Below the pieces are notes generated by a model. The model worked only from the letters and a program-made list of their open reading frames with translations, did not search any database and was not told the DNA's origin. Positions 108 to 64,000 of a DNA stretch of 64,000 nt are shown in pieces (positions within the stretch are counted from its first letter, which is position 1; the number at the start of each line of letters is the position of its first letter). Origin of the DNA: an uncultured Alphaproteobacteria bacterium. Lineage in GTDB: Bacteria; Pseudomonadota; Alphaproteobacteria; RF32; CAG-239. The DNA lies in assembly GCA_910577205.1 (NCBI GenBank), contig CAJTMA010000001.1:137840-201839 (forward strand), given 5' to 3'. A program made the position numbers and the translations under genes.

Positions 108-178
108 GATTTACATTGAATTTCAATAATTTCTCCTTACATATGTGATGTAAACAACACACATAAGGAGAATGTGAT

Positions 179-611: not shown

Positions 612-670
612 CCCGTCTTAATATTATTAACTCAACAATCAACTTAATTAACATTTTAAGGAGAAATACC

Positions 671-778
671 ATGGCTTGTGGAAACAGCAAAAATGCAAAA
701 TCAGCTTCTGGAAATTCTAATTCATCCAGCTCTCGTTCTTCTAAATCTTCTTCTGCTAAGAAAGAAAGCAGCAAATAG
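671..778 (+). CDS. Small Ser-rich basic protein, 35 aa (MACGNSKNAKSASGNSNSSSSRSSKSSSAKKESSK).
   Basis: ATG preceded by AAGGAG. Ends in TAG at 776-778 and is followed by a terminator hairpin. Confidence 0.4.
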   Translation: MACGNSKNAKSASGNSNSSSSRSSKSSSAKKESSK

Positions 779-804
779 TTCTTTCTAAATCCTCATAGCA
801 CCGA

Positions 805-840
805 ATCTCCCTTGCCATAGCGTAAGGGAGATTTTTTATT
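805..840 (+). terminator. Rho-independent terminator (atctccctt / aagggagat stem, then TTTTTTATT).
   Basis: GC-rich hairpin plus T-run read directly from the sequence. Confidence 0.6.
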
Positions 841-902
841 AGACTATTTGAAATTATAGATTATATTAATCAGGGTTCATTGTCATACATAAGGATAGCA
901 AG

Positions 903-1526: not shown

Positions 1527-1529
1527 TAA

Positions 1530-2342: not shown

Positions 2343-2420
2343 ACTAATATTTTAATAGGCATTGACGAGAACATAAACCCGTTTTACACTCAACGCAGAT
2401 TTAACCTTGAGGCCAGTCCA

Positions 2421-3548
2421 ATGAAATTTAAACTTTTTGCCTTATCCGCTTTGGCTTTGTTATGGCCTGTCCATACGCAGGCAGCTGATGCCGAATTTGT
2501 TTACAGCGGACGGGTTGATTCCCTTTATAGCTATAATATGCCGGACAGCCGGTATAAGCATAATGACCACCGCGACCATTGGGTTAATATTTTCTCTCTT
2601 AACCTTGGGATAGAAAAAGAATTTGCCGATGATTACCAGTTGGGGTTATATGCCGATTTTAACGCCGGTATCAACAAACGGCAGGATAATTTTAATAACG
2701 GCGACTGGGGACAGGAAGTCTACGGGATTATGGACAGCCCGTATGGCCGGATTATGCTTGGCGAAACCTACAACGTAGCCTATCAGTTTCAGGTTGGCGC
2801 GCCGCGCGTCGGGGCAATCGGGCTGAATGATTCCGACATTGTCAATTTCATGGCGAATCCCAACTGGGTGAAGACAAAGCACGAAACGGCCTACCGGACG
2901 CTAAATTCAACCTCGATGAATACTGACGGTGTCGCGCCGAAAATCAGTTATATCACGCCGGAAATCTATCGCACCAGTTTCGGGGTCAGTTTTACGCCCG
3001 ACACCTATGACCGGCGGGGACTAGTAAATAAGTTTGCCAAATATGCCGATGATACGGCTTATGTTTTCTCGCTCTACAGTGAACAGGATTTGGGGTTTGC
3101 CGATATGTCGGCCGCTTTGGGTTATGGTATTTTTAACCAAGATGACAAAGAATTTACGGCCGGGTTAAGCTTTTATAAGGGTGGCTGGACACTGGGTGCA
3201 AGCTACCGCAAGACTTATGTTGACGGCGGAGATTATAAAATTACACAGCAAAGCCTGAATCCTCGCCTGCCGGATTTGTTTGACAATTACCGCGAAGGAC
3301 AGGCTTGGGATGTTGGTTTGAAGTATGAAATCGGGCCGTTTCAAACCGCATTGTCATATTTGCACAGCGAGGCCAAGGACAGCCGCAACAAAGATGATAT
3401 TATTCTTCTTTCTAACCAATATCAGCTGAACAAATATGTTGACCTTTACCTTGTCGGCGCACAGGTTAATTTCCGCGGCGCAGACCGAACAATTGCCGAG
3501 AACAACAAAGGATACACTGTTGTTGCCGGTGTCGGCCTCCATTTTTAG
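2421..3548 (+). CDS. Outer-membrane beta-barrel protein, porin-like.
   Basis: Signal peptide ending AQA. Alternating amphipathic strands. C-terminal ...VVAGVGLHF with terminal Phe. Confidence 0.6.
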   Translation: MKFKLFALSALALLWPVHTQAADAEFVYSGRVDSLYSYNMPDSRYKHNDHRDHWVNIFSLNLGIEKEFADDYQLGLYADFNAGINKRQDNFNNGDWGQEVYGIMDSPYGRIMLGETYNVAYQFQVGAPRVGAIGLNDSDIVNFMANPNWVKTKHETAYRTLNSTSMNTDGVAPKISYITPEIYRTSFGVSFTPDTYDRRGLVNKFAKYADDTAYVFSLYSEQDLGFADMSAALGYGIFNQDDKEFTAGLSFYKGGWTLGASYRKTYVDGGDYKITQQSLNPRLPDLFDNYREGQAWDVGLKYEIGPFQTALSYLHSEAKDSRNKDDIILLSNQYQLNKYVDLYLVGAQVNFRGADRTIAENNKGYTVVAGVGLHF

Positions 3549-3553
3549 GGAAT

Positions 3554-4183
3554 ATGATTATGCCTGACGTTTTACTGCTTTCTGACAATCAGGGATTTGC
3601 CGATGACCTCGCCGGCCAAATCAGTTTATACACCCCGGAGTTCTCCGTTTACCGGCAAGATGGTGATAACCGGAATTTTGACGTCTATATTTTGGATGAA
3701 AAAAGCCCTTTGGCGGGTAAATTGCGCCAGGAGCACCATAAAGCGCCGATACTCTTACTGGAAAAAGCCGACAGTTCCGCAGATTTTGACCCGGAAATGA
3801 CTGTTTACAAGCCATTCAGCCTGAATGTCTTTTTAAATTTGCTGCGCTCTTGCATCAACCGTTTTGAAAACAGCAGCGACGGCTATTTGCGATTTAACAG
3901 TTATGAACTTCATCCGGCGGCAAAAGAAATTGTTAATTTGCAGAATGGCGAAACCGTCAAACTGACGGAAAAGGAAGTGGCGGTTATTAAATATTTATAC
4001 AAAGCCAAAGACAGAATCGTTTCAAAAAATGACTTGTTACACGATGTTTGGGATTATAATGCCGATGTGACAACACATACGATTGAAACGCATATCTATC
4101 GCCTGCGGCAGAAAGTTGAACATGACAATGCCGAAACGCCGCTGATTATGACCGAAGACGGCGGTTACAGACTTAAATTTTAG
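3554..4183 (+). CDS. OmpR/PhoB-type winged-helix transcriptional regulator with an atypical receiver-like N-terminus.
   Basis: C-terminal trans_reg_C-like segment (THTIETHIYRLRQKVE...GGYRL). N-terminus has D/D/K positions but a degenerate receiver. Confidence 0.55.
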   Translation: MIMPDVLLLSDNQGFADDLAGQISLYTPEFSVYRQDGDNRNFDVYILDEKSPLAGKLRQEHHKAPILLLEKADSSADFDPEMTVYKPFSLNVFLNLLRSCINRFENSSDGYLRFNSYELHPAAKEIVNLQNGETVKLTEKEVAVIKYLYKAKDRIVSKNDLLHDVWDYNADVTTHTIETHIYRLRQKVEHDNAETPLIMTEDGGYRLKF

Positions 4184-4186
4184 GAT

Positions 4187-5461
4187 TTACCGGGAATTTC
4201 CGCCGGGACGCGGGCGCGGTTTTGAACGCGGCTTAGACCGGGGTTTAGCCGGCTGGTTTGCCTGTATGGCTTTTTCCAAACGCTGTTTGGTTTGCGCGTC
4301 AATATTTTTCAAAAATGCCGGGGTTATTGACGGAGCGCCTTTGGTTTTCATTCGCGGCTGGGCTTCAAGACAGGCAATTAAAAGGCGGGCGCGGAATTCA
4401 TCATCTTCAATAGAGGCAAATTCAATCTGGCTGTTATCTTTTGCGGCCTTGGCAACCACATCGGCGAAATCCTTAACGCTCGGAATATCGTCTGTTCCGT
4501 CATCACGAACAACGCCCATGGATAAATTGTATTCGTTGTTGGCTTCCAGATTGAGCTTAGAACCGTCTGCACGAGTAATATCTGCCACAAAATTCGGATT
4601 TTTGGCATCTTCATGATATACAGCCTTATCCCTTGCCGCCACGGCCTGATAATGTTTGCGCCAGCCGTCTTTCCAATTGTCGTTGTTATGCGGCAGAACC
4701 GGCAGGGCATTATCATGCGACACGGCAACAGCTTTGACCAAGCCCGGCATATTTTCCAAAGTTGCGCGCATTGAAGCAATACACTCGTCACAAAACGGCG
4801 GCTGATTTTTCTTTTTGCGCTCCAGCCGCTCTTGTGTCAACCCGATATAACCGCTTTCGCCCATAATACATTTGTCATTGGTGCAGTGTGTGCCCAAATC
4901 CGCGTCATAATGCGTATTGCCCCTTTTGTCATGCGTGGCATTGAGAATATGCCCGAATTCATGCATAAAAATAGTGATAAATAATTCCTTATCATTACAG
5001 GTCTGGGTGGAGAGAACAGCATTAAGCTTTTCAATCCCGTAGCCATAAAAAGACGGTTCTAATTTCTCATTGAGAAGCGTCACAACCAAATCCTGCGAAC
5101 CAGTACGCATCATGTTTTCGGCTTTCAGCTGGCCGTATTTAGCCATATCAACGCCGTTTATGCCTTTTTTGCGATTTTCTGCGGAAGCGGCAAGCAGGTA
5201 CCACTGCTCGGAAGCATAAGGCACAAGATATTTGCCGTTGGGCAGTTTGATAAATTTTTGTTTATAGCCATCGTTCGGCAGGGAAACATATTCATTGACA
5301 TCAATTTCCGATTTATTCTGCGGGCGGCAGTCGCTGAACTCCGCCTTAAATGAGGATTTATATTCAGGAAACAGCGCCAGCATTTCCTCCGCGGCTTCTT
5401 TCGCCCAGAGCTTATATTTCGGATGAGTGCCTGCCGGTGTTTCTATGATTATTTTTTTCAT
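4187..5461 (-). CDS. Archaemetzincin-like zinc metallopeptidase with a ~200-aa C-terminal extension and basic KPRSKPRSKPRPRP tail.
   Basis: HEFGHILNATH (HExxHxxxxxH), then CTNDKCIM (Cx4CxM), then CDEC about 25 aa later. Start overlaps the upstream gene stop (ATGA). Confidence 0.6.
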   Translation of the reverse strand: MKKIIIETPAGTHPKYKLWAKEAAEEMLALFPEYKSSFKAEFSDCRPQNKSEIDVNEYVSLPNDGYKQKFIKLPNGKYLVPYASEQWYLLAASAENRKKGINGVDMAKYGQLKAENMMRTGSQDLVVTLLNEKLEPSFYGYGIEKLNAVLSTQTCNDKELFITIFMHEFGHILNATHDKRGNTHYDADLGTHCTNDKCIMGESGYIGLTQERLERKKKNQPPFCDECIASMRATLENMPGLVKAVAVSHDNALPVLPHNNDNWKDGWRKHYQAVAARDKAVYHEDAKNPNFVADITRADGSKLNLEANNEYNLSMGVVRDDGTDDIPSVKDFADVVAKAAKDNSQIEFASIEDDEFRARLLIACLEAQPRMKTKGAPSITPAFLKNIDAQTKQRLEKAIQANQPAKPRSKPRSKPRPRPGGNSR

Positions 5462-7368
5462 TTGTCTTTTCCTTTGGCGCGCAGCATTTTAAGCAGCGTC
5501 TTTTCTACCGGACGTTCAATCTGACATTTGTGTTTCATTTCTTCGGCATAGCGTTCGCCGATACGCGTTGAGGGGCGTTTGAAATCATTCAGTTTAAAAA
5601 TTTCGCAAACCAAATTGCCTGACACCATACGGCGGCGGCGATTGTCAAAGATGTCACCCAGTTTTCCGGCCTCATAATCAATTTCATCAGGATTTCTGCC
5701 ATCCTGCCGCAACCGCCGGCGGAGGGTTTCCGTTACCCGGCCTTCCGTTTCTTTGGAGGCATCAAACAGCTTAAAGGTATTCTGCCGCTGGCGCTGAATT
5801 AAAATATTATTGGCATCAAAGAAGTAGTCCTGCGCCTGAACATGGCTGAAATAGGCTTCAAAACCTTTGCGGTTAAATCCGGTTTCAGCAGAATTTGTCA
5901 GCTCGGCAAATAATGCAATCTGTTTGAACCAATCAGTTTTGTGATCACCGCATTGTTGTTCAAAATCACGGCTTTTCAGAATATTAGCGCTCTTTTTATC
6001 GCACCAGTAAAGCAAATCGACCATTGGCGGGGTTATGCCAATTTTTTGGGCTTCTATGCCGTCTATCAGCTTGTTATTCAAAACCGACAGAAATTCCCCA
6101 AACTGACGGGTGTCGTTTGTGTTGTCCATTGCCAATTGCCGCGACAAATTGTCTAGTTCTTTATCACCGGTCCGCGGCGCATGATTATTGCTCTTTTGCA
6201 TATTTTCCGCAATGGTTTGTATCAGGCCGGCAGCCGTTTCGCCGGTATCCTGATTAACAATCGTTTCGTATCGGCTGATATCCAGGTAGGCCGGCAAGAA
6301 ATCTTCAGATTGAACATTTTTCAAATCCCCGGCAATCAATGCGGCATTTTCATCGGCTGACGGCTTATCCCCTGACTTAGCGGCCTGATAGTAGTTAAGC
6401 ATATGTCCGACAAGCTCGCTGACACCGATGGTTTCACTGTGTATCATGTCCCTCAAACCGTTAAACTCCGCAACCTCAAGCTCTATCGCTTTGGTACGCA
6501 GAAGCTCCCGTTTGGTCATATCTGGTGTCGGAACTTCCTTCAAAATGCCCAAAGCCTCATTAAAACGGCGCGGCGACCATTCCGATGTGAGAATTTTATT
6601 ATTGTACCCTATCAGCCCATATTCGCCGAAAGCACAATCATGTTCGGCGGAAAGCGTGTTAAAATCAGGCGTTTTATTAATCATCGGAATGACATATTTT
6701 TCAAAACCTTCGGCCATCTCCGGCGTTAAATTGCCCTCATTGAGATAAGTCATGTCAATTTCTTCACAGACTTTAACGAGGGTTTGGGGGTCATCCAACT
6801 TTTGTATTGCCTTATTCACCATCCCCAAGCGGTTAAAATAGGCAGAGGGATTGTCTTGATAAAGCGAGCTAAAAACCTGCAATGCCAGCGGAAACTTGTC
6901 TTTCAGCCCCAGCCCGTTATCCGGAGAGGTTATTCTTTCAGCCGTAATCGCCATAAATTTATGCAAACTATCATCATTCAGACGCTCCGGCGCATAAGTC
7001 ACCATTGCTTTGGCAGACATTGCAAAAATTGCCCGACATAAGGCTTCATCTTTGGGTGTTTCAGTGTTAGGCATAACACGGTCTGCAAAAATCTCTGAAT
7101 AGCCGACTAACTCAGCCAGCTGTTGCGGCTCTAAGCGGTTAATTTCACAAAAGCGGCTGTTCCAATTGCGTGTGACCGCGCCCTCTTTTATTTCAGGGTC
7201 GAAATAACTGTCCATACCCAAATTATAAGCGATTTCAGCCATATTTTTGGCCGCAGAAGCTGCCGCTCCGGCACTTATTCCGGGATGTTGCCGTTTCATC
7301 TCCTCTATGGCTTCTTTGGCCGGAGCTGTTCTTATAAAAACGGCATATAATTCATCAAAATCGCTCAT
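5458..7368 (-). CDS. Hypothetical protein, 636 aa. No motifs I recognise. Translationally coupled to the metzincin gene.
   Basis: Long uninterrupted ORF. 4-nt overlap with the downstream gene. Confidence 0.65.
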   Translation of the reverse strand: MSDFDELYAVFIRTAPAKEAIEEMKRQHPGISAGAAASAAKNMAEIAYNLGMDSYFDPEIKEGAVTRNWNSRFCEINRLEPQQLAELVGYSEIFADRVMPNTETPKDEALCRAIFAMSAKAMVTYAPERLNDDSLHKFMAITAERITSPDNGLGLKDKFPLALQVFSSLYQDNPSAYFNRLGMVNKAIQKLDDPQTLVKVCEEIDMTYLNEGNLTPEMAEGFEKYVIPMINKTPDFNTLSAEHDCAFGEYGLIGYNNKILTSEWSPRRFNEALGILKEVPTPDMTKRELLRTKAIELEVAEFNGLRDMIHSETIGVSELVGHMLNYYQAAKSGDKPSADENAALIAGDLKNVQSEDFLPAYLDISRYETIVNQDTGETAAGLIQTIAENMQKSNNHAPRTGDKELDNLSRQLAMDNTNDTRQFGEFLSVLNNKLIDGIEAQKIGITPPMVDLLYWCDKKSANILKSRDFEQQCGDHKTDWFKQIALFAELTNSAETGFNRKGFEAYFSHVQAQDYFFDANNILIQRQRQNTFKLFDASKETEGRVTETLRRRLRQDGRNPDEIDYEAGKLGDIFDNRRRRMVSGNLVCEIFKLNDFKRPSTRIGERYAEEMKHKCQIERPVEKTLLKMLRAKGKDK

Positions 7369-7529
7369 CTGCAGTTCCTTAAACTTTCTTTGCTTTAATG
7401 TAACATAATATGAAAATTTTGTCTAGAATCAAAATACCCCGGAAAGGGTTAAAAAATTGTGTAAAAATCCGCTCCATACGTTGATATCTTTAAATTATCG
7501 CTTGGTGATTATGAAATTCTGCTATATGA

Positions 7530-10010
<2,481 letters not shown>

Positions 10011-38196: not shown

Positions 38197-39915
38197 TTAA
38201 TTTTCCTCATCATAAATGATTTCATTATTATCGGCACCGAAATCCAAATCTGACGAATCGTCATCAGTTTCGGTCATTTTGCGGGTTGCGGTTTCGATTT
38301 TGGCGCCTTTAAATTCCGCCATAATCGCTTTAACCAACGGATATTCCATAATGTTACGTTTTTCTTCTTCCTCTGCCGCTTTTTCCATATCGGCCAGTGT
38401 CACGCCCAATGCGCCGCGGGTAAGTTCAATTTTCCACGTCAGGCCGGTGGCCTCCGTCAGCGTTTTATGCAGATTGAGAATAAAATCGGGGTGGATTTTC
38501 TCGGATACGGCCATTTTTATCAGGCCGTTGCTGAATTCGGAAATTGAAACATCATTCTTAATGGCATATTCAACCAGAAGCATTTTTTTCTGCTCAAGGT
38601 AAGCAACCAAATCGCTGACTTGGTTAAACACCAGTTTATCCCCGGTTGGCTGAATAGCGGAGGCAGGCTCCGCAGCCGGAGCCGCCCTAAAAACCGGTGT
38701 TGTTCCCGGAGAACGGACAGAGGGAACTACAGCACTTAAATTAGAGTTTTTTTTTACGTCGTTCAAAAGCTCGTATGGCGTTGGCAAATTAGCAGAGTAA
38801 GCCACGCGAATCAAAATCATTTCCAACGCGTCAATCTGCACCGGAGCAACCTGTAATTCGCCCAGCCCTTTAATCATCATCTGCCAGATTTTTGACAAGA
38901 CGGCAATTGAAACTTTGGCGTTCAAACGCTGGCAAAGTTCTCTTTCGGCTTCGCTTAAAGACGAATCGTTGATAAAGCTGGGAACAAGTTTAGTTTTCGC
39001 CAACAGATGGGTAATATTTATTAAATCTTGCAACAGAGAGGTCGGGTTTGCCCCGTTTTTATATTGCTCCTGCAATTTGAGAATGGTTTCTTTAGTGTCG
39101 CCGCTGACAAGCTTTTCAAAGAGTTCAAAAGTCTGGTTGCGGTCGGCCAAGCCAATCATCTCTTTAACGACATCGGTTTTAACAACGCCGGCACCGAGAG
39201 AGATTGCCTGATCAAGCAAAGACAAACCGTCACGCGCCGATCCGTCAGCCGCTTTGGCAATAATATGCAATGCTTCGTTATCGGCTTTCAAATTTTCGGC
39301 AGCAACAATCTTATTAAAGAGCTTCATCAGGTCTTCTATTGTCAGGCGTTGCAAATCAAAGCGCTGGCAACGTGACAAGACAGTTACCGGAACTTTGCGG
39401 ATTTCGGTCGTGGCAAAAATAAACTTAACGTGCGCCGGCGGCTCTTCCAGCGTTTTCAGCAAAGCGTTAAATGCGTTTTTGGAAAGCATATGAACTTCGT
39501 CGATGATATAAATTTTATAGCGGGCATTGGTCGGCTTATAACGTACGCCGTCCAAAATCTCGCGGATATCATCTACGCCGGTACGAGAAGCCGCGTCAAG
39601 CTCCAAAACGTCAATATGGCGGTCAGCGGCAATAGCTTTACAATTCTCACACACGCCGCAGGGATGAATCGTCGGCCCACCATTGCCATCAAGCCCCGTA
39701 CAGTTCAAAGCGCGGGCAATCAGACGGGCGGTGGTGGTTTTGCCCACGCCGCGGATACCGGTTAAAATGTAAGCATGGTGCAAACGGTTGTTTTTAATGG
39801 CATTGGTAAGGGTTTGCACCAAGGCATCCTGCCCAAGCAAGTCATTAAAACTCTGCGGGCGGTATTTGCGGGCCAGAACCACATATTGATTATCTTTATT
39901 TTCTTCTTCTGCCAT
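38197..39915 (-). CDS. dnaX: DNA polymerase III subunits tau/gamma.
   Basis: AAA+ GIRGVGKTT, zinc module CGVCENC. I chose MAEEENK as the start because the ORF-track extension runs through the SRP RNA gene. An A9 run at 38747-38755 is a possible frameshift site. Confidence 0.93.
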   Translation of the reverse strand: MAEEENKDNQYVVLARKYRPQSFNDLLGQDALVQTLTNAIKNNRLHHAYILTGIRGVGKTTTARLIARALNCTGLDGNGGPTIHPCGVCENCKAIAADRHIDVLELDAASRTGVDDIREILDGVRYKPTNARYKIYIIDEVHMLSKNAFNALLKTLEEPPAHVKFIFATTEIRKVPVTVLSRCQRFDLQRLTIEDLMKLFNKIVAAENLKADNEALHIIAKAADGSARDGLSLLDQAISLGAGVVKTDVVKEMIGLADRNQTFELFEKLVSGDTKETILKLQEQYKNGANPTSLLQDLINITHLLAKTKLVPSFINDSSLSEAERELCQRLNAKVSIAVLSKIWQMMIKGLGELQVAPVQIDALEMILIRVAYSANLPTPYELLNDVKKNSNLSAVVPSVRSPGTTPVFRAAPAAEPASAIQPTGDKLVFNQVSDLVAYLEQKKMLLVEYAIKNDVSISEFSNGLIKMAVSEKIHPDFILNLHKTLTEATGLTWKIELTRGALGVTLADMEKAAEEEEKRNIMEYPLVKAIMAEFKGAKIETATRKMTETDDDSSDLDFGADNNEIIYDEEN

Positions 39916-39934
39916 TAAAATTCTTCTTAAAAAA

Positions 39935-40025
39935 GGTGGAGGACGAATGACCTTAACCGCTTTCGTTACGGCTGCTTCCTTCCGGACCTGACCGGGTTGG
40001 CGAAGAGTTAACCCACCATCCTCCA
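39935..40025 (-). ncRNA. ffs: Signal recognition particle RNA (4.5S RNA).
   Basis: Minus strand contains GGUCAGGUCCGGAAGGAAGCAGCC (conserved domain IV). 5' ggaggatgg pairs with 3' cgtcctcc. Followed by TTTTTT. Classic position upstream of dnaX. Confidence 0.85.
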
Positions 40026-40127
40026 TAAATGTGATTTTCAGCCTTAAACGCCGGAAATCCTGACGGGATTAATATCGTTCATATCCGGCGATTTTTCAAG
40101 GAAAAAATCAATAATTAACACCTGAGC

Positions 40128-51641: not shown

Positions 51642-52664
51642 TTAATCAATTACTTTGATTGAAAATTTACCGTTTGCAGACGGGGCCGCAGCGGCGACAG
51701 AAGACTGCGGCGCAAACGTGCCGTGTTTCTCCCCTGCCCGTTTTTGTTCCAGTATATCGATAATCATATCCAGTTCTGCCGGCGAAGCATATTGCAATAC
51801 GACTTTGCCGCCTCCCTGTTTACTTGGAGAAATTTTTATTCTCAGGCCAAGGTTCTTATTTAAATCTTTTTCAATGTCAGCAATGTCAGAATCTTTTTCA
51901 GCTTTTGCGGCCGTTTCTTTTTTGCCTTCTTTTTGTTTGGCAACCAATTCTTCAACTTGACGGACATTTAAATCCTTGGCTATAATTCGTTCAGCTAAAG
52001 CTTCGGCATTTTCTAATCCTACCAAAGCCCGAGCATGACCGGCACTGAGTCTGCCTTCTTTTACCAGAAGCTTAACGGCTTCCGGAAGATTAAGCAGGCG
52101 CAGCGTGTTTGCTATGTGACTGCGGGATTTGCCAATAATCTGCGATAAAGCTTCCTGTGTGTGGGAAAATTCGTCAATCAGACGCTGCAATCCTTCAGCT
52201 TCCTCAATGGCTGACAGGTTTTCTCTTAATAAGTTTTCCACCAATGCCACTTCAAGAACTTCTTTGTCAGAAAGATCTTTTTCAATGACCGGAACTTTAT
52301 CAAGGCCTGCCAGTTTAGAAGCACGCCAGCGGCGTTCACCAGCAATAATCTCAAAACCCATTCCGTCGCGCCGGACCAAAAGGGGCTGCAATACGCCCTT
52401 TTCTTTGATGGATTCAGCCAATGAGTTTAAGGCTTCTTCATCAAATTCGGTTCGGGGCTGAAACTTCCCGGGTTTAAGTAAATCTATATCAATCAAACTG
52501 GCTGAAGTGGTTGACGGCGCTAAAGAGCTTAAATCTTCAACACTGTTCAAATCCAAATCATCTTCACCCAGCAGCGCACCAAGGCCACGACCAAGGCTTT
52601 TGCGCTTGTGATTATTTTCAGAGGGGGCGCTGTTCAGCATTTTATTTATTTCATTTTCTAGCAT
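51642..52664 (-). CDS. parB: Chromosome partitioning protein ParB.
   Basis: GERRWRA ParB box and HTH. Start taken at MLENEINK, overlapping the parA stop. Confidence 0.93.
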   Translation of the reverse strand: MLENEINKMLNSAPSENNHKRKSLGRGLGALLGEDDLDLNSVEDLSSLAPSTTSASLIDIDLLKPGKFQPRTEFDEEALNSLAESIKEKGVLQPLLVRRDGMGFEIIAGERRWRASKLAGLDKVPVIEKDLSDKEVLEVALVENLLRENLSAIEEAEGLQRLIDEFSHTQEALSQIIGKSRSHIANTLRLLNLPEAVKLLVKEGRLSAGHARALVGLENAEALAERIIAKDLNVRQVEELVAKQKEGKKETAAKAEKDSDIADIEKDLNKNLGLRIKISPSKQGGGKVVLQYASPAELDMIIDILEQKRAGEKHGTFAPQSSVAAAAPSANGKFSIKVID

Positions 52665-53437
52665 GCCAGCAATTCCTTCTCTCTTTTCAGAACTTCTCCG
52701 GTCAGGCTGATGTAGGCCTGTGATCCGGGACATTTAAAATCATATATCAATACAGGTTTGCCATGTGAGGGGGCTTCTGAAATACGAACATTCCGCGGAA
52801 TGACCGTTTGGTATACTTTTTTACCAAAGAAGCTGCGCACATCGTCTTCAACCATCTGTGTCAGGTTATTACGCTTGTCGTACATTGTCAGCACAACACC
52901 CTGTAATTCAAGTTTGGGATTAAATTTCTTTTTAATCTGGTTGATGTTGCGAATTAAATCGGTAATGCCTTCCAATGCCAGAAACTCACATTGCAAGGGA
53001 ACAATGACAGCGTCCGCAGCAACCAGGGCGTTAATAGTCACCAAGCTTAATGACGGCGGACAATCAATTAAGATATAGTCATAATTAACGGCATCACGAT
53101 ACAAGGCTTTTTTCAACGCAAATTCGCGATTGGCAATTTCAACCAATTCAACTTCTGCTCCCGCCAAATCAGGGGAAGAGGGAATCAAAGAAAAGTTAGG
53201 GATGTCTGTCCAGACAACAGCTTCAGAAATTCTTTTGTCACCCAAAAGCACTTCGTAAGAAGAAGCCATCCGCCCGCTTTTGTTAACGCCCATTGAGGTG
53301 GTGGCATTTCCCTGCGGGTCTAAATCGACAACCAAAACTTTTTTGCCGGTGGCAGCCATAGCTGTCGCAACATTTACCGTTGTCGTGGTTTTTCCGACTC
53401 CGCCTTTTCGGTTGGCAATGGCAATAATTCTTGGCAT
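52658..53437 (-). CDS. parA: Chromosome partitioning ATPase ParA.
   Basis: KGGVGKTT deviant Walker A. 259 aa. Confidence 0.95.
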   Translation of the reverse strand: MPRIIAIANRKGGVGKTTTTVNVATAMAATGKKVLVVDLDPQGNATTSMGVNKSGRMASSYEVLLGDKRISEAVVWTDIPNFSLIPSSPDLAGAEVELVEIANREFALKKALYRDAVNYDYILIDCPPSLSLVTINALVAADAVIVPLQCEFLALEGITDLIRNINQIKKKFNPKLELQGVVLTMYDKRNNLTQMVEDDVRSFFGKKVYQTVIPRNVRISEAPSHGKPVLIYDFKCPGSQAYISLTGEVLKREKELLAC

Positions 53438-54063
53438 TATTTAACTCCCTTAAGTTTGCTTAGATTATTGATTAACAAAATGACACCCTCATCGCTATAT
53501 TCGCTGGGCATGGCTTGACAGTCAAATTTCCAGTGCTTGCGTGCTTCGGCGATTTCTTCTGCATATTTTTTGCCTTTAGGAAATATACAAAGCGTTTTTT
53601 TACCGCAGAACGGAAATGCATAACCGAGCAGCCCATCCAAAGCAGTCATCGCTCTTGAGGTAATAACATCAGCTTTTTGACGAGGCAGATTTTCGATTCG
53701 CTCATTCAAAACCTCGACGTTTGCACCTGTCAATTCAGCGACGTGTTTTAAATACAGTGTTTTCTTCTTTATACTTTCTATAAGGTTCACTTTTAAATAC
53801 GGTGTTTTTTCTTTAGCCATTATAGCAAGAACCATTCCCGGAAAGCCAGCGCCAGAGCCAAAGTCATAAAGGGTTTGCGCGTCTTGGGGGATATATCTAA
53901 ACAGCTGCATCGAGTCTAAAAAATGCCGATTCCAGCTATCTTCCAATGACGCAGAGCTAACCAGATTAAACTTATTTTGCCACTCGCGCAGAGAGGCTTC
54001 ATAAGCTTTTAAATGCTCAATTGTTTCACGTGAAACACTATATTTTTCTGCAATATTTTTCAT
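53437..54063 (-). CDS. rsmG: 16S rRNA m7G527 methyltransferase RsmG (GidB).
   Basis: DFGSGAGFPG SAM motif. Sits between parA and mnmG as in canonical loci. Confidence 0.93.
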   Translation of the reverse strand: MKNIAEKYSVSRETIEHLKAYEASLREWQNKFNLVSSASLEDSWNRHFLDSMQLFRYIPQDAQTLYDFGSGAGFPGMVLAIMAKEKTPYLKVNLIESIKKKTLYLKHVAELTGANVEVLNERIENLPRQKADVITSRAMTALDGLLGYAFPFCGKKTLCIFPKGKKYAEEIAEARKHWKFDCQAMPSEYSDEGVILLINNLSKLKGVK

Positions 54064-54236: not shown

Positions 54237-54854
54237 CTATTTGATGATTTGCAGAAATTGGTAGGTATCACACTGGCATTTGTTGTCGATGGTCGTCTTC
54301 AGATAAGTTACGATTTGTCGCAGAGAGTATTCTTGTTGCGCCGAGAGTTGATAACGCGAAGTAATGCCTTCAATGCGTTGCTCAGGTGTCACGCAACTTA
54401 GGCCTTCAAAAAACATATCGGCATATTGGATAATTAAATCATAGTCACTATAGATAAGCGGTTTTAACAAGCTGCGACATTCATCAAGCCAGTGGTCCGG
54501 ATAGGAATAATCTTCATTTGAAAAATCTTTGTTAACAAAAGTATGCGTCAGGCAGATTTGAGCAACGTCGGTATACCCCTGCGACAACATATCCCGGTAG
54601 CCAAGGATACCGTGAAAACAATCTTGCTGCCTTTCATCTTGGCGCTTACCATGATCATGCAGCAGACCCAAAACATAAGCTTTTTCCTCGTTCAATGACA
54701 TCTTTTGGGCGAGTAATTCACTTAATTTGGCAACACCTTGCGTATGGAAAATATACTCCTTGTCAATTTGCGGTGATTTGACGTGGTGGGCGCGGGAATA
54801 ATCTATTCCCTGCTGCCAGATTATTTCAGCGTCATATCGATTGGGATAAGACAT
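54237..54854 (-). CDS. HD-domain phosphohydrolase family protein, paralog 1 of 3.
   Basis: H...LGLLHDHGK...FHG...LTH...YAD pattern. C-terminal KCQCDTYQFL motif is shared by all three. Confidence 0.65.
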   Translation of the reverse strand: MSYPNRYDAEIIWQQGIDYSRAHHVKSPQIDKEYIFHTQGVAKLSELLAQKMSLNEEKAYVLGLLHDHGKRQDERQQDCFHGILGYRDMLSQGYTDVAQICLTHTFVNKDFSNEDYSYPDHWLDECRSLLKPLIYSDYDLIIQYADMFFEGLSCVTPEQRIEGITSRYQLSAQQEYSLRQIVTYLKTTIDNKCQCDTYQFLQIIK

Positions 54855-55474
54855 TAATGAATTCCTAAAAGGGTATAGATATCACAGCCGCATTTTTCAT
54901 CAAAATATTGCTTAAGCTTTTCAGCGGCGTTCATATGTGCTTGTAAAAAATCTTCCTGAAAAGGGTATCTTTGAGCCAATGACTGGCAACGATAACTTAA
55001 TGTGCAGCTTTTTCCCCGGTCATTCAACATATCCGCTAACTGGAGCAATTTGTCATAATTATCATAATCAAGCTGAGAGATTATTTGTTTGCAGCGCAAA
55101 AGGTCTTGATGTGCCTGAGGATATAAATCCGGATTAAAATCTTTATTCAAGAAGCAGTGGGTGAGGGATATCCGGGCAATTTCATTCCAACCTTGAGACT
55201 TCATCAACTCATAGCCTGTCCAGCCATGGAAGACATTTTCGCTTTTTTCGTCTTTGATACGCCCGCAATCATGAAGCAAACCTGAAAGATATGCGCGTTC
55301 AGGGTTTAAATACGCTGTTTTTGCAGCTATTGTCGAGGCAATTTCAGCAACAGTTCGGCTATGAGCACGAAACTCTTTTTCCCATTGCGGCAAAAAAGGG
55401 CAGGGACTGTTATTACGGCTGGTTATTACATATTCAAGAAAAGCTTCGGCTTCTTGTCTGGTTGGCAATGGCAT
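54854..55474 (-). CDS. HD-domain phosphohydrolase family protein, paralog 2 of 3.
   Basis: LSGLLHDCGR...FHG...LTH...LAD...KCGCDIYTLL. Start taken at MPLPTRQ (GGGAG RBS), immediately after the stop of paralog 3. Confidence 0.6.
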   Translation of the reverse strand: MPLPTRQEAEAFLEYVITSRNNSPCPFLPQWEKEFRAHSRTVAEIASTIAAKTAYLNPERAYLSGLLHDCGRIKDEKSENVFHGWTGYELMKSQGWNEIARISLTHCFLNKDFNPDLYPQAHQDLLRCKQIISQLDYDNYDKLLQLADMLNDRGKSCTLSYRCQSLAQRYPFQEDFLQAHMNAAEKLKQYFDEKCGCDIYTLLGIH

Positions 55475-55475
55475 T

Positions 55476-56099
55476 TCAGGCAACTCCCAAAAGCTTGTAG
55501 ATATCGCAACCGCATTTGTCATCAAAATACTTTTTTAACAGCAAAGCTTCGCGGTATTTTTTCTTTACCAAAGCGACAGGCAGTCGGTAAGTATTTTGAA
55601 TAAACTTCATACGCTCTTTAATATTATATGTTACGCCGACAGACAAGCGGTCACAAAGTTGAATCAGGCGATCATAGTCGTCAAATGGCAGCTTGTTTAG
55701 TAACTGTTTGCAATGGCGCATTTCCCAAGGATTATAGGAAGCATATTCTCTTAAATTTAATTCCTGCTGATAAAAAGTGTGGGTCAGGTTAATTCTGGCA
55801 AGTTCATCATAGCCTAAATTTTTGAGGAATTTATATCCCTCCAAGCCGTGAAATTTATCGGAAACTTCATCGTTATACACTAATTTTCCGAAGTCATGAA
55901 ACAAGCCCATCAAATAAGCTTTCTGCCCATCAATTTCCGGCAGCCGTGATGCAATAATTTCAGCGCAGACAGCAACCATTGCCGAATGAATCCTTTGCCC
56001 TTTTGCCCGGCCATATTTGAAACGGGATGATTCCTCGCAGCGCTTATCTAACGTTTCTTCATAAAGCTTTAGAGCTTCTTTCATGCTTGGCATTGTCAT
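55476..56099 (-). CDS. HD-domain phosphohydrolase family protein, paralog 3 of 3.
   Basis: LMGLFHDFGK...FHG...LTH...LCD...KCGCDIYKLL. Confidence 0.65.
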   Translation of the reverse strand: MTMPSMKEALKLYEETLDKRCEESSRFKYGRAKGQRIHSAMVAVCAEIIASRLPEIDGQKAYLMGLFHDFGKLVYNDEVSDKFHGLEGYKFLKNLGYDELARINLTHTFYQQELNLREYASYNPWEMRHCKQLLNKLPFDDYDRLIQLCDRLSVGVTYNIKERMKFIQNTYRLPVALVKKKYREALLLKKYFDDKCGCDIYKLLGVA

Positions 56100-56102: not shown

Positions 56103-57956
56103 TCACCTCTTAACAAATCCCAAAATAGCAGTTATTGCCGCCGGCGTTACCCCGGGTATGCGGGAAGCTTCACCAACGGTCGACGGGCGGACTTTAGACA
56201 GTTTTTGCACCATCTCACGCGATAAGCCGCCAATTTGGCTGTAATCAATGTCTTCCCTAATTTTTAAGTTTTCATCTTTATGGAACACGTCAATATCTGC
56301 TTGCTGGCGCTTCAGATAGCCGGCATATTTTGCTTCAATTTCGATTGCTTCGTAAACATCGTCCGGCATAGAAGATAATTCTGGCCAAAGCTGATTGATT
56401 GTTTCACGTGAAACAGTGTCATAAGACATGAGGTTAAAAGCAGTGCGTTTAGTGCCGTCATGTTTGGTTTTGATACCGGCTTCATCAAGACGGTTTTGTT
56501 TGGCAAACAACTCTTCACAAAGGCTGCGGTAATGTTTAATCTTGTCATATTTTTCTTTAAATACAGTGTATCTATCATTCCCGACACAACCAATTTGCCA
56601 GCCTTTTTCCGTCAGGCGGGCATCGGCATTGTCTGCGCGGAGCAACAAACGATATTCCGAGCGGGAAGTAAACATCCGGTAAGGCTCATCCACGCCTTTG
56701 GTAATTAAATCGTCTATCATAACACCAATGTAGGCTTCGCTGCGGTCTATGGTGAATTCACGGCCTTTGCCTTCAGCAAACAAGGCCGCATTGACACCGG
56801 CAACCAAGCCTTGGGCGGCAGCTTCTTCATAACCTGTCGTACCGTTTATCTGCCCTGCCAGATATAATCCCGGAACTTTTTTAACTGCCAGTGTCCGATT
56901 CAGCTCCTGCGGGTCAACATAATCGTATTCGATAGCGTAGGCATAACGCAGGATTTCAACATCTTCTAATCCGGCAATGGTATGAATAAACTGCTCTTGT
57001 ACATCAGCGGGCAGGGAGGTCGAAATGCCGTTAGGGTAAACAACATCTGTTGTCAGACCTTCGGGTTCAAGAAAAATCTGGTGGCTGGTGCGATCAGCAA
57101 ACTTGACTAGCTTATCTTCAATACTGGGGCAGTAACGCGGCCCGACACCTTTAATCAGCCCGGAGAAAAGCGCACATTTGGAAAAATTATCGCGGATAAT
57201 CTGGTGCGTTTTTTCATTGGTGTGAGTTATATAACACTGAATTTGCGGATTAGTAATTTCTTTAGTTAAATAAGAAAAAGGCTGGGGCGGAAAATCTCCG
57301 TCTTGGGCATCAAGCTTATCCCAATGGATAGTTTTGCCGTTTAAGCGAGCAGGCGTTCCGGTTTTCAAACGCCCGACAGTCAAACCACGCTGTTTTAAAT
57401 ACGGTGTTATACCTGAACAACTGACATCATCTATACGACCGCCGACAGTTGTTTCATGTCCGACAAACATCACACCATTTAAGAAAGTACCGGAGGTCAG
57501 GATAACGGCTTTGGCTTGGATTTCTGTTCCGTCCGCAAGAATTACGCCGCTCGCCTTGTCGCCCTCAAAAAGCAATCCCTCGGCTGCCGCCTCAATAATA
57601 TCCAGGTTTGGCTGCGCCTGCAATGCTTCAAGCATAAATTTTTTATAAAGTTCTCTGTCTGCCTGAGCACGCGGTCCTCTGACAGCAGGGCCTTTAGATT
57701 GGTTTAGCATACGAAACTGTATACCGCCTTTGTCAATGACCCGTCCCATAAGACCGTCCAGAGCATCTATTTCGCGCACCAAATGCCCTTTGCCTAATCC
57801 GCCGATAGCGGGATTGCAAGACATAGCGCCTATGGTTTCAATTTTATGAGTAATTAACGCGGTTTTTGCACCGGTTCTGGCCGCCGCGGCACAGGCTTCA
57901 CATCCTGCATGGCCGCCGCCAATGACAACAACATCATAGTTTCTATTTTCAGTCAT
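56103..57956 (-). CDS. mnmG: tRNA uridine 5-carboxymethylaminomethyl modification enzyme MnmG (GidA).
   Basis: FAD-binding [12 protein letters not shown] and the conserved MnmG core. 617 aa. Confidence 0.96.
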
Positions 57957-59934: not shown

Positions 59935-60057
59935 AATCTCTTCCTGTCAAAAATCTTAAAATTGTCGACAGTATAATTCAAATTGGTAAAAAATGCGATA
60001 AAAATTAGCCCATTAAAATTAAGGCCTATTTTGGACTTGCTGAGCGTATTTTAATTT

Positions 60058-60825
60058 TTGCTTAAGTGTTATCCTATAAACTATGCGAAATTCTATTGTA
60101 CGGGCTTCCTGCGGACTCATTTTTTTCTACTGAAAGTATATAAAGTGACAGAAAACTCTAAAAAATTAATTATCTGGGATTTTGACGGTGTTTTGGCTGA
60201 TACGGAAAAGCTTTGGCTGGAAAACCGCAGGCAAATGATTAACGAAACTTTCGGATTTAATTGGGATTTTGCTATGACAAACTGTCATTTAGGCGGAATG
60301 AGCGACAAAACCAAACGGTTAAATTTAGACAAGCTTGGCCTTGAAACAACTGATGCCTTTTGGGATGAATGCGCAAAGCGAGATATGGCCGTAATGGAAC
60401 TTGGATTTGAAGCAACGCCCGATGTTGAAGATATACTGAAATGCCAAGAACTTAAGCAATGCGTTGCAACCGGCGGTGTTTTATCAAAAAGTATTGAAAA
60501 ACTCAAAACAATCGGATTTTGGAATAAATATATCACAAAAAATAATCTTTTTACCGCAGATATGGTCGAACACGGAAAACCCGAACCTGATTTATTTTTG
60601 CTTGCAGCCCGGAAAATGGGGGCTGAGCCAGAAAATTGCGTTGTCATAGAGGATTCTCTCGCAGGCATGAAAGCCGGTCTTAAAGCGAATATGAATGTCA
60701 TCGCCTTTATTGGCTGCGAAATGAACAATTCACCAGAATATATAAATAAAATCAAAGAGTTAGGTGTTAAGAATATTTTTAGCAGAATGTCTGACATAAA
60801 AGATTTTTTAGCGGTGTGCAAATAA
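60058..60825 (+). CDS. HAD-IA family hydrolase (beta-phosphoglucomutase-like).
   Basis: IWDFDGVLADTE motif I and downstream HAD motifs. True start may be GTG near 60145. Confidence 0.7.
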   Translation: MLKCYPINYAKFYCTGFLRTHFFLLKVYKVTENSKKLIIWDFDGVLADTEKLWLENRRQMINETFGFNWDFAMTNCHLGGMSDKTKRLNLDKLGLETTDAFWDECAKRDMAVMELGFEATPDVEDILKCQELKQCVATGGVLSKSIEKLKTIGFWNKYITKNNLFTADMVEHGKPEPDLFLLAARKMGAEPENCVVIEDSLAGMKAGLKANMNVIAFIGCEMNNSPEYINKIKELGVKNIFSRMSDIKDFLAVCK

Positions 60826-61320: not shown

Positions 61321-61350
61321 AAACCCCGGAAAATTCCGGGGTTTTTGTTT
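61321..61350. terminator. Bidirectional terminator (ccccgga aaatt ccggggtttttgttt) shared with the rho 3' end.
   Basis: Hairpin plus T-run. Confidence 0.75.
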
Positions 61351-62602
61351 AGCTGTTCATGGTATTAAAGAAATCATGATTGTCTTTGCTCATCCGCAAT
61401 TTATCAAGCAGGAATTCCATACCGTCGGTCATGCCCATCTGCATCAACACGCGGCGCAAAACCCACATTTTGGAAAGGGTCGCTTTGTCAACCAGCAGCT
61501 CTTCCTTACGCGTTCCTGAACGGGTAATATCAATGGTCGGGAATAAACGCTTGTCCGTCAGCTTACGGTCAAGGATAATTTCAGAGTTACCTGTTCCTTT
61601 GAATTCTTCAAAAATAACTTCATCCATGCGAGAACCGGTATCAATCAAAGCCGTCGCAATAATTGTCAGCGAGCCGCCTTCTTCAACATTACGAGCCGCA
61701 CCGAGAATACGTTTCGGGCGTTGCAAAGCATTGGCATCGACGCCACCGGTCAAGACTTTGCCTGAAGAAGGGATAACCGTATTATAAGCACGCCCCAGAC
61801 GGGTAATCGAATCCAAAAGAATGATAACGTCTTTTTTGTGCTCAACAAGGCGTTTGGCTTTTTCAATAACCATTTCGGCAACCTGAACGTGACGGGCAGC
61901 CGGTTCATCAAAGGTTGAAGAAATAACTTCGCCTTTAACCGAGCGGGTCATATCGGTTACTTCTTCCGGACGTTCGTCAATCAACAGCACCATAAGGTAA
62001 GCTTCCGGATGATTTTCGGCAATCGCATGAGCGATGTTTTGCAGCATAACCGTTTTACCGGTACGCGGCGGCGCCACAATCAGGCCGCGCTGGCCTTTGC
62101 CTTGCGGCGAAATCAAGTCAATAACGCGGCAGGTGTAGTCTTTATCTCCGCAGATAATGTCAAAATTAAGTTTTTCTGTCGGATATAATGGCGTCAGGTT
62201 GTCAAAGTTAACGCGCAGTTTTGATTTTTCAGGATCATCAAAGTTAATGGTGTTAATTTTGGTTAAAGCAAAATAGCGTTCGTTATCACGCGGACCGCGG
62301 ATTTCACCCTCGACAGTGTCGCCGGTGCGCAGGCCGAATTTTTTAACCTGGGACGGGGAAACATAAATGTCGTCCGGTCCGGCCAAGTAGTTTGATTCGG
62401 CAGAGCGAAGAAAGCCAAAGCCGTCCGGCATAACTTCAATCGTGCCTTCGCCGTTAATGACAATATCGTCATCTGCCAGTTTTTTGAGAATAGCAAACAT
62501 TAAATCCTGTTTGCGCATTGAAGAAGCATCTTCAATTCCTAAATCTTCCGCCTGGGTTAATAACTCGGTCGGAGACTTCTGCTTGAGTTCTTTTAAATTC
62601 AT
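61349..62602 (-). CDS. rho: Transcription termination factor Rho.
   Basis: Cold-shock-like RNA-binding domain, Walker [16 protein letters not shown], RecA-like core. 417 aa. Confidence 0.97.
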
Positions 62603-63115
62603 GTGAACCTGATCTGATTATAAAAAATGAAGTGAATGGTTGAAAGGGTAAAAAGATGAACTATATGTTCATGGCATAAGCTTTATATATGATTTAAATT
62701 ATAAAGTGTCAAACAAAGAATAGAGATTTTTTCATGGCAGTTTTATGCACATCTTCCCTGCCCATATAATATTTTTTTAAAAGTTAGTAGTAGATTGTAT
62801 ATGCCTGTGACTGATGTGGATAAGTTCTTTAACACAAAGTTATGCAGAGCAGGCGGGGATGTTTATAAGATTGTGGGGGAAAGTTAACCCTTTCTTAACG
62901 AATCGTTAAAAATTTATTAACACAAAATGTAAACCTAAAAATTGCCCGTTTGTGCGTAACTTTTTTATCCCCAGATTTGGGATAAAATATGAGCTTGTGC
63001 GTAAGTGGGTATATTAGATTTTACTTTATGGTGATTAATCTGTATAAACTTAGTAAACAGCGGAGTTATGCACAGAAAAGGGCACTTCTGTTGATAACTG
63101 CCTTAAGCCTTTGAT
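62603..63115. promoter_or_regulatory. AT-rich intergenic region with a perfect DnaA box, DnaA-like boxes and two tandem CtrA boxes. Candidate chromosomal replication origin and/or CtrA-regulated promoter region.
   Basis: TGTGGATAA at 62815-62823. TTATCCCCA at 62965-62973. TGTTGATAA at 63089-63097. TTAA-N7-TTAAC at 62884-62899 and 62906-62921. Confidence 0.45.
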
Positions 63116-63127
63116 TTGGAGTTTAAA

Positions 63128-63712
63128 ATGAAAATAGTTGCCATAACGGGTTCTATCGGCTGTGGGAAAACCACTTTGGCGCATTTGGTTCGCGATTTGG
63201 GATATACGGTTTATGATGCCGATGGCTGGGTACGGCGCTTATATTATCAAAAAGATTTTATTGCGGCGGTTGGCAGGCAGTTTCCTGAAGTGATTGAAAA
63301 CGGCAAAGTTAACAAACGCCGGCTGCGGGATATTGTTTTTAGTGACAACAGCCGCTTAAAAGTGCTGGAAGCTCTGGTTCATCCTTTTCTGAAGCAAATG
63401 TTTAAAAAACTGAAAAAGCGCAATGCCGGTTATGACGATTTGTTTTTTATTGATGTCGCTTTGCTGTTTGAGATGGGATGGGATAAATTCTGTGATTATG
63501 TGATTGTGGCTGATGTGGCGTATGAGTTGCAAAAACAAAGAGTGATGAAAAGAGATAATATCAGCAGTGAAGATTTTGAGAAAATCAATAAAGTTCAGAT
63601 GAGCAATGAAGCCAAAAAACAGCTTGCCGATGCGGTTATTAACACGGATAAGCCGCTGAATTTGCTGAAAGCAAGCTTGTTGTGCGTCATTAGTGAAATT
63701 GAGGATTGCTGA
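63128..63712 (+). CDS. coaE: Dephospho-CoA kinase.
   Basis: KIVAITGSIGCGKTT P-loop. ~195 aa. Alternative TTG start at 63116. Confidence 0.9.
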   Translation: MKIVAITGSIGCGKTTLAHLVRDLGYTVYDADGWVRRLYYQKDFIAAVGRQFPEVIENGKVNKRRLRDIVFSDNSRLKVLEALVHPFLKQMFKKLKKRNAGYDDLFFIDVALLFEMGWDKFCDYVIVADVAYELQKQRVMKRDNISSEDFEKINKVQMSNEAKKQLADAVINTDKPLNLLKASLLCVISEIEDC

Positions 63713-63714
63713 AA

Positions 63715-64000
63715 ATGGTCAGAGAGATTGTATTCGATACGGAAACCACGGGTTTTAAAGTTAATGAGGGTGACAGGCTGGTTGAAATCGGTGCGGTGGA
63801 ATTAATAAACCATATGCCAACCGGCGTGACTTATCACCAATATATTAACCCGGAGAGAGATGTTCCGGATGACGCGTTTAAAGTTCACGGGTTAAGCTAT
63901 GACTTTTTGAAAAGTTATCCGACTTTTAAACAAGTGGCCGATGAATGGCTGGACTTTGTCGGGGATGCCGTTTTGGTCGCGCATAATGCGTCTTTCGATA
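63715..64000 (+). CDS. dnaQ: DNA polymerase III epsilon subunit (3'-5' exonuclease), 5' partial in window.
   Basis: REIVFDTETTG Exo I motif and VAHNASFD Exo II. Runs off the window end. Confidence 0.88.
   Translation, partial: MVREIVFDTETTGFKVNEGDRLVEIGAVELINHMPTGVTYHQYINPERDVPDDAFKVHGLSYDFLKSYPTFKQVADEWLDFVGDAVLVAHNASFD

Follow-up and report, generated by a model that had tools for sequence, protein, structure and literature searches.

Where does replication of the chromosome begin in an uncultured alphaproteobacterium of the human gut? The question is raised by the spacer between rho and coaE in a stretch of 64,000 nucleotides from contig CAJTMA010000001.1, referred to here as the window. 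An earlier reading of this DNA, hereafter the original prediction, had proposed the spacer as a candidate chromosomal origin of replication (oriC). Our analysis supports this proposal and, judged from the sequence, the spacer very probably is the oriC of this organism. We base the assignment on a cluster of DnaA boxes, on the conserved footprint of these boxes in related species, on a step in strand composition that sits at the locus, on nearby parS sites, on a gene order that matches a published origin cluster, and on the failure of rival sites, with no stronger cluster near dnaA.

A conserved cluster of DnaA boxes in the rho-coaE spacer

The candidate oriC is the non-coding spacer at 62603-63127 (525 bp), bounded by the rho start codon at 62602 on the minus strand and the coaE ATG at 63128, which is most likely the true coaE start rather than the TTG at 63116. 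The earlier description of an AT-rich, non-coding region holds (32.6% GC, compared with 45% for the 64-kb window), but its length of 510 bp becomes 525 bp with the ATG start. Spacers of equal size are present in relatives. We found no open reading frame longer than 44 aa in the spacer and no Rfam match even at E = 1, and on these grounds rejected an RNA gene or a small protein at this position.

The alphaproteobacterial search consensus for DnaA boxes, TTATNCACA, has three exact matches in the window, and all three lie inside the spacer, which makes up 0.8% of the window. With up to one mismatch allowed, the spacer holds five boxes, one perfect and four with a single mismatch, compared with 0.21 expected from 2000 composition-matched shuffles, none of which reached five. 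We extended the window rightwards by 9.7 kb using the Logan contig L004, which is 100% identical to window positions 61598-64000. In a sliding scan of the resulting 73.7 kb, the spacer was the densest 525-bp stretch at up to one and at up to two mismatches. As expected of an oriC, the cluster lies in a non-coding region and is enriched over the rest of the window.

To follow the boxes through evolution, we aligned the window with seven related species, whose CoaE identity ranges from 85% down to 54%; column identities given below refer to this alignment of eight species. Box 1 (TTATGCACA, 62743-62751, plus strand) fits TTATNCACA and reads TTATnnACA in 8/8 species (column identity 0.92). Box 2 is the perfect box (TTATCCACA, 62815-62823, minus strand; 0.96). 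It stands in tandem with a weak minus-strand box at 62806-62814, recognized by eye, which reads TGTGACTGA on the plus strand, has three mismatches and contains a CCTGTGA that is near-invariant in the eight species. DnaA-like boxes 3 (TTATGCAGA, 62840-62848, plus strand; 0.89) and 4 (TTATAAACA, 62860-62868, minus strand; 0.92) have two mismatches each, and box 4 reads TGTTnATAA in nearly all species. DnaA-like boxes 5 and 8, both TTACGCACA on the minus strand with two mismatches (62951-62959 and 62996-63004; 0.81 and 0.89), have a 10-mer in common (repeat family D4). Box 6 (TTATCCCCA, 62965-62973, plus strand, one mismatch) forms an inverted repeat (pair I9) with DnaA-like box 7 (TTATCCCAA, 62977-62985, minus strand, two mismatches), which is replaced at the aligned position by TTATCCACG (one mismatch) in relative L005 and by AAATCCACA (two mismatches) in L008. 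Box 9 (TTATGCACA, 63066-63074, plus strand; 0.97) again fits TTATNCACA, and box 10 (TTATCAACA, 63089-63097, minus strand; 0.94) has one mismatch. The original prediction had listed the perfect box, as TGTGGATAA, and the one-mismatch boxes 6 and 10, the latter as TGTTGATAA. All three are real and lie where they had been placed, but the two further one-mismatch boxes, 1 and 9, had been missed.

Across the eight species, the ten TTATnnACA or TGTnnATAA elements hold their positions. Their column identity is 89%, against 64% for the unannotated part of the spacer, and none of 5000 random placements of ten 9-mers matched this conservation. Such positional conservation is the pattern expected of functional DnaA boxes and not of a chance motif in one genome. 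Sites for integration host factor (IHF) were rejected as an origin feature. The spacer has a single match to the IHF consensus (AATCAAAGGCTTA, 63104-63116, minus strand), which sits just before the coaE ribosome-binding site and is kept in close relatives, and the count across the window is at chance level.

The strand-composition switch maps to the spacer

From about 12 kb onwards, cumulative G-C declines until it reaches its minimum at 59,955; it then runs level as far as about 62.5 kb and climbs steeply to 73.7 kb. Because gene orientation switches at the same place, we used third codon positions in genes of both orientations to separate coding from replication effects. Left of the spacer, the third-position GC skew, referred to the plus strand, is -0.09 in plus-strand genes and +0.04 in minus-strand genes; right of it the values are +0.26 and +0.32. 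A likelihood scan with two segments, in which each gene orientation had its own fit, placed the change point at 62,100 (maximum likelihood), with a support interval of two log-likelihood units (2 lnL) from 62,000 to 63,100 and a gain of 61.5 lnL over a model with no change. The GC-skew switch, which the original prediction had named as a check, thus sits at the locus and not far away (62.0-63.1 kb).

The same step is found at the orthologous spacer in the relatives L025-L028, and in the most distant relative, L007, the skew undergoes a true sign change from about -0.13 to about +0.15. The location at a strand-composition switch, as expected of an oriC, is thus reproduced in five relatives.

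Partition sites and gene order around the spacer

Each of the neighbours named in the original prediction (rho, coaE, dnaQ, mnmE, mnmG, rsmG, parA and parB) was confirmed by NCBIfam or Pfam models. The left boundary gene is rho (61349-62602, minus strand; TIGR00767, 684 bits) and the right one coaE (63128-63712, plus strand; PF01121), whose exact protein is present on many metagenome contigs. After coaE comes dnaQ (PF00929), which starts at 63715 and continues past the window end. The partition genes parB and parA occupy 51642-53437 on the minus strand (TIGR00180 and ParA-family matches). The spacer has two perfect parS sites at a distance of 6-9 kb, one (TGTTTCACGTGAAACA, 54022-54037) in the 5' end of rsmG and the other (56400-56415) inside mnmG. 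They recur at matching positions in every relative whose locus extends that far, including L006 and L007. The order rho-spacer-coaE-dnaQ, with a spacer of 467-525 bp, is kept in seven relatives.

In Azospirillum sp. B510 and Magnetospirillum AMB-1, the origin has been placed at the GC-skew shift within the cluster rho-hyp-hemH-hemE-(ori)-hyp-maf-aroE-coaE-dnaQ, with parAB near (PMC2818188). The window retains the outer genes of this cluster in the same orientation and lacks the six inner genes, such that rho and coaE flank the spacer directly. The rho-coaE spacer is thus the positional equivalent of the classical hemE-COG1806 origin spacer (PMC1914354). The location of parAB differs, being downstream of dnaQ in B510 and on the rho side, after mnmE-mnmG-rsmG, in the window.

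Several further features of the locus were noted. In L006 (positions 1-8703), an AT-rich relative with a third-position GC of about 0.1, the block hyp-rho-origin-coaE-dnaQ is inverted relative to its flanks and mnmE-mnmG-parAB follow dnaQ; the block from mnmE to parB shows ordinary positive leading-strand skew. The contigs of L006 and L008 end within or right beside the origin spacer. Between rsmG and mnmG lie three tandem paralogous HD/HDOD-domain genes (54237-56099, minus strand; 205, 223 and 207 aa), of which two or three copies are conserved in relatives. In other strains of the same species (L001-L003, 98% identical), the interval between mnmE and the HAD gene of the window is about 667 bp longer and contains a second HAD-hydrolase gene (around 59935-60160 in the window and L001:6141-7030). 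The bacterial small SRP RNA (39932-40027, minus strand) is immediately upstream of dnaX. The longest dnaX open reading frame (38197-40026) overlaps this RNA, and the true dnaX start must therefore be further downstream.

A phased TTAA array at the centre of the spacer

The original prediction had also described two adjacent CtrA-type sites of the form TTAA-N7-TTAAC. Both are present, at 62884-62899 and 62906-62921, and are the sole two in the window, but a third perfect TTAA-N7-TTAA between them (62895-62909) had been missed. The earlier pair forms the outer parts of an array of four TTAA half-sites with 11-bp spacing (starting at 62884, 62895, 62906 and 62917; array 62883-62921), that is, three overlapping matches to the CtrA-type consensus TTAA-N7-TTAA. 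The central site of the array, TTAACGAATCGTTAA, is perfectly palindromic over its 15 bp and includes the one GANTC of the spacer (62900-62904). Under a first-order Markov model of the spacer, 0.14 TTAA-N7-TTAA sites are expected, compared with the three observed (P = 0.0008), and the array of four half-sites has an expected frequency of 0.10 per 64 kb even with two mismatches allowed. A cruciform or hairpin role of the array was rejected because of its weak fold (z = -1.1).

Several TTAA-N7-TTAA sites inside the origin, as in the Caulobacter crescentus origin (Cori), are found in six species, each with three to four perfect sites in the spacer (P <= 0.003 each) and almost none elsewhere in the 20-kb loci. 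The central site is identical in L025, L026 and L028 (CoaE identity 85, 79 and 70%), carries one change in L027 (71%), is degenerate in L005 (61%), retains GAATC only in L008 (64%) and is gone in L007 (54%). In every locus examined, TTAACGAATCGTTAA is confined to the origin spacer. The outer TTAA-N7-TTAAC sites are kept in the two closest species only, yet each of the six species has three to four sites; the pattern therefore looks like site turnover under selection. Many sites have the form GTTAA-N6-GTTAA, a direct repeat of 11-bp period, which suits tandem-binding OmpR-family regulators such as CtrA and gives the extended CtrA consensus on the other strand. The last half-site overlaps a two-mismatch DnaA-like box, TTATTAACA, at 62914-62922. 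In relatives, TTAA sites overlap boxes 4, 5 or 10; the conserved central site is free of such overlap.

GANTC occurs 93 times in the window against 193 +/- 13 expected, a two-fold depletion, and among 16 comparable palindromes only one is avoided more strongly; the ratios in relatives are similar. Despite this depletion, the GANTC of the central site is retained in 7/8 species. The depletion hints at a GANTC-specific enzyme. GGNCC is even scarcer (ratio 0.21-0.42 in the window, L007 and L028), and the scarcity of both motifs points to a pressure of restriction-modification or CcrM-like type. GTWWAC shows no avoidance and no clear enrichment in the sequence. A gene for a beta-class N6-adenine DNA methyltransferase lies beside the PTS EIIA and HPr genes, with its 3' end at window positions 1-109 and its complete copy at L030:8287-9207. 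The best matches of this enzyme are E. coli YhdJ-type models and PDB 8urk. With 115 bits against a CcrM cut-off of 830, it was rejected as CcrM and is YhdJ/BceJIV-like.

Is CtrA the protein that reads the array? On the sequence evidence we regard CtrA binding at the central array as plausible, at slightly under an even chance. An origin without CtrA is a serious possibility too, to which we give somewhat less than an even chance. The array would then serve another tandem-binding regulator or a nucleoid protein, act as a phased bend, or be in part a by-product of AT-richness and of TTATTAACA-type boxes. Such readings do not easily accommodate the exact match of the sites to TTAA-N7-TTAA, often in the extended form TTAA-N7-TTAAC, or the strict 11-bp interval between four half-sites, which lies far outside chance expectation. 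Nor do they easily accommodate a central site that differs from a DnaA box and persists in species with CoaE identity as low as 70%. Moreover, CtrA is widespread in Alphaproteobacteria (PMC8116508).

Other observations count against CtrA. The more distant relatives L006, L007 and L008 keep all DnaA boxes yet have no TTAA sites in the spacer. Several non-central sites overlap TGTTAATAA-type DnaA boxes, from which they take their GTTAA, and may be by-products of them, and a symmetric dimer would fit the perfect palindrome of the central site too. The one DNA methyltransferase found in the vicinity, the YhdJ-like enzyme, is not CcrM. A tblastn search with a Caulobacter CtrA sequence gave no match in about 410 kb, which is about 5% of any one genome, and our literature search on CtrA or flagella in RF32 or CAG-239 returned nothing useful. 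Among Rhodospirillales genomes, 72-82% were found to have ctrA, and the role assumed for CtrA in that order is the control of motility, not of replication (PMC8116508). According to a review, CtrA sites have not been seen in origins beyond Caulobacter and possibly Rickettsia (PMC4468827). The original prediction had presented DnaA boxes together with CtrA boxes as the alphaproteobacterial architecture; the motifs are real and enriched, but the combination is not general (PMC4468827).

We also considered an OmpR/PhoB-type winged-helix protein encoded directly after a porin gene (3554-4183, plus strand). Its receiver domain is degenerate, with no receiver-domain match at E < 1e-6, and we rejected it as CtrA since it is not CtrA-like.

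Promoters and candidate unwinding elements

The spacer contains three low-stability AT-rich stretches. The left-most, at 62676-62706, is best explained by a near-consensus promoter for rho (TTGACA, 17 bp, TATATA; 62684-62712, minus strand), readable from the sequence. Its TGTCAAA and TTTATATATG are kept in most relatives, and it is probably the rho promoter.

Our preferred candidate for the DNA unwinding element is the stretch at 62764-62793 (plus strand), where ATATAATATTTTTTTAAAAGT is followed by TAG TAG TAG. Only one 30-mer of the region is less stable, and the stretch lies 5' of the tandem boxes at 62806-62823, giving the order AT-rich stretch, trinucleotide repeat, box. The same order characterizes basal unwinding systems, for which the strict rule asks that no more than 16 bp separate the trinucleotide repeats from a box with two mismatches at most (PMC8287927). 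Two points speak against this module. A strict match was rejected, as the perfect box is 21 bp from the repeats and the box between has three mismatches. In addition, the T/A run is conserved across species but the TAG repeats (62785-62793) are poorly so, being kept in close relatives only.

A conserved 39-bp AT-rich block at 63010-63048 (column identity 0.85 in the eight species) holds the third least stable 30-mer and, on the minus strand, a promoter-like match at 63046-63018. This suggests either that the block is an alternative unwinding element or that it contains an internal or coaE promoter.

Alternative readings of the locus

The assignment of the spacer as oriC has to be weighed against an asymmetry of the skew. 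A simple bidirectional origin predicts equal and opposite skew values on its two sides. In all five close species, however, the replication-associated skew is -0.03 to -0.06 on the left (at least 80 kb) and +0.29 on the right (10 kb); in L007 it is roughly symmetric. The comparison comprised the window together with L004:2404-12115, L025-L028, L030 and L032, and it covers 10 kb to the right of the spacer, so that the skew minimum given above is that of the region examined. The one-armed strand bias could mean that the two forks are inequivalent, for example if the leftward fork is often delayed or blocked. The asymmetry slightly lowers our confidence in the oriC.

We next considered whether the spacer is only a divergent promoter region, from which rho and coaE-dnaQ are regulated by DnaA in the role of transcription factor together with a second regulator, and whether the true origin lies elsewhere. 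Promoters for rho and coaE must indeed be present in the spacer, DnaA boxes are known from promoters (PMC4468827), and the left arm has almost no replication skew. Ten conserved boxes over 360 bp, however, are far beyond the needs of a promoter. The distance between the TTAA array and the probable promoters is 170-190 bp on the rho side and about 120 bp on the coaE side, which does not correspond to a -35 position. This reading also leaves aside the skew step at the spacer in six species, the nearby parS sites and the fit to the published origin gene cluster (PMC2818188), and no other box cluster exists in about 95 kb, the region upstream of dnaA included. We therefore consider it improbable.

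An origin in the spacer between mnmE and the HAD gene (59935 to about 60150) is very unlikely. The raw cumulative G-C minimum falls in this spacer, and at the equivalent spacer in relatives, and the spacer contains one TTAA-N7-TTAA at 60051. Its only box, however, is a weak one-mismatch box at 59927 that overlaps the mnmE start codon, and once coding effects are removed a change point at this place is worse by 10.7 lnL units. The flat course of the raw skew between 60 and 62.5 kb is due to plus-strand genes followed by the minus-strand rho. With its single weak box and the poorer likelihood, the mnmE-HAD spacer was rejected as the origin.

The original prediction had further named a stronger box cluster near dnaA or hemE as a finding that would refute it. 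Including a leftward extension of about 9 kb, obtained via contigs that match the LolA protein of the window, we examined about 95 kb of the genome altogether; hemE is absent from it, and dnaA lies about 72 kb left of the rho-coaE spacer in the order rpsT, 854-bp spacer, dnaA-dnaN-recF. An origin in this rpsT-dnaA spacer, as in many bacteria, would fit the grouping of dnaA, dnaN and recF behind a long spacer with a repeat array, but we rejected it as the least likely location of all. The spacer (39% GC) has no box with up to one mismatch, one box with up to two and no TTAA-N7-TTAA, and the third-position skew does not change across it, either here or in a related species followed for a further 9 kb to the left. 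For Rhodospirillales, moreover, a conserved position of dnaA close to the origin is reported to be lacking (PMC8116508).

The repeat array in the rpsT-dnaA spacer (L030:337-1190) consists of five tandem units of about 68 bp at L030:644-983 (period 137 bp, 2.5 copies). Each unit bears a GGTAAA...TTTACC inverted repeat; neither DnaA boxes nor an Rfam match were found here. In some relatives (P0123-P0129), gene callers stretch DnaA to about 600 aa through this array.

A proposed model for initiation

From the arrangement of these elements we infer how DnaA binding, the site of unwinding, a protein on the TTAA array and any role of methylation may combine at the rho-coaE spacer. DnaA would fill about ten TTATnnACA-type boxes across 360 bp (62743-63097). 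The tandem pair of weak and perfect box at 62806-62823 would nucleate a DnaA oligomer, which would run leftwards over TAG TAG TAG (62785-62793) and open the AT-rich sequence at 62764-62784. Forks would then depart in both directions, and ParB-parS complexes 6-9 kb away would segregate the new origins.

The array of four TTAA half-sites, spaced by one helical turn and with a GANTC palindrome at its centre, most likely serves as the binding site for a regulator of the OmpR family that binds in tandem, with CtrA as the obvious candidate. The array separates boxes 1-4 from boxes 5-10. A row of bound protein would block continuous DnaA assembly and might in this way gate initiation. At Cori, CtrA sterically blocks DnaA assembly (PMC4468827).

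Comparison with known origins

Published in-silico criteria for alphaproteobacterial origins are a spacer of 200-1000 bp, conserved boundary genes, enrichment of sites for DnaA (and CtrA or IHF) and the absence of a rival spacer (PMC1914354). The rho-coaE spacer agrees with these criteria. Cori, located between hemE and CC_0001 (COG1806), also belongs to the alphaproteobacterial origins and occupies a spacer of about 400-500 bp, with DnaA boxes and several TTAA-N7-TTAA sites, some of which overlap DnaA boxes (PMC1914354, PMC4468827), and with parS several kb away. The two origins differ in their boundary genes, rho and coaE in the window and hemE and COG1806 at Cori. At Cori, two moderate G-boxes are accompanied by weak W-boxes (PMC4468827), whereas the spacer described here has many boxes close to the E. 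coli consensus. Furthermore, five TTAA sites are spread across Cori, in contrast to the one central, phased 37-bp array of the window, at which CtrA binding is predicted only.

The predicted origins of Rickettsia, Wolbachia, Ehrlichia and Anaplasma are bounded by hemE and by COG1806 or COG1253 rather than by rho and coaE. Wolbachia has no clear skew step, unlike the clear step found here.

The E. coli oriC, between mnmG (gidA) and mioC, resembles the rho-coaE spacer in its cluster of TTATCCACA-type boxes and in its neighbours mnmG and rsmG. In E. coli, an AT-rich unwinding element lies 5' of the R1 box (TGTGGATAA), in the same orientation as in the window. By contrast, mnmG adjoins oriC in E. 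coli and is 5 kb away here, the GATC/SeqA system of E. coli has no equivalent in a spacer with a single GATC, and the TTAA array has no E. coli counterpart.

Significance for the clade

The relatives used in this study are metagenome-assembled genomes labelled 'uncultured Alphaproteobacteria', human-gut samples among them. Named CoaE homologues come from 'Azospirillum sp. CAG:260', 'Azospirillum sp. 47_25' and 'Candidatus Scatocola', names that we take to correspond to the GTDB order RF32, family CAG-239. In the metagenome collection, the CoaE of the window is found in 142 blocks and the CAG:260 version in 6887 blocks. As far as our literature search went, an origin for this clade appears not to have been described previously.

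An origin that is located with kilobase accuracy anchors coverage-based estimates of growth rate (peak-to-trough ratio), the orienting and circularising of genomes, and analyses of replichores in uncultured gut Alphaproteobacteria of a clade that is common in human metagenomes. One scenario, which we regard as rather unlikely in its entirety, is that the origin of this clade gained a phased CtrA-type array independently of Caulobacter and Rickettsia, that initiation thereby became coupled to a CtrA-like regulator and perhaps to adenine methylation, and that its forks are inequivalent. If the array is a true CtrA site, it would represent a further, probably independent, recruitment of CtrA to an origin, beyond Caulobacter and possibly Rickettsia (PMC4468827). 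It would also place CtrA at the origin in a lineage near Rhodospirillales, where a role in motility is assumed (PMC8116508).

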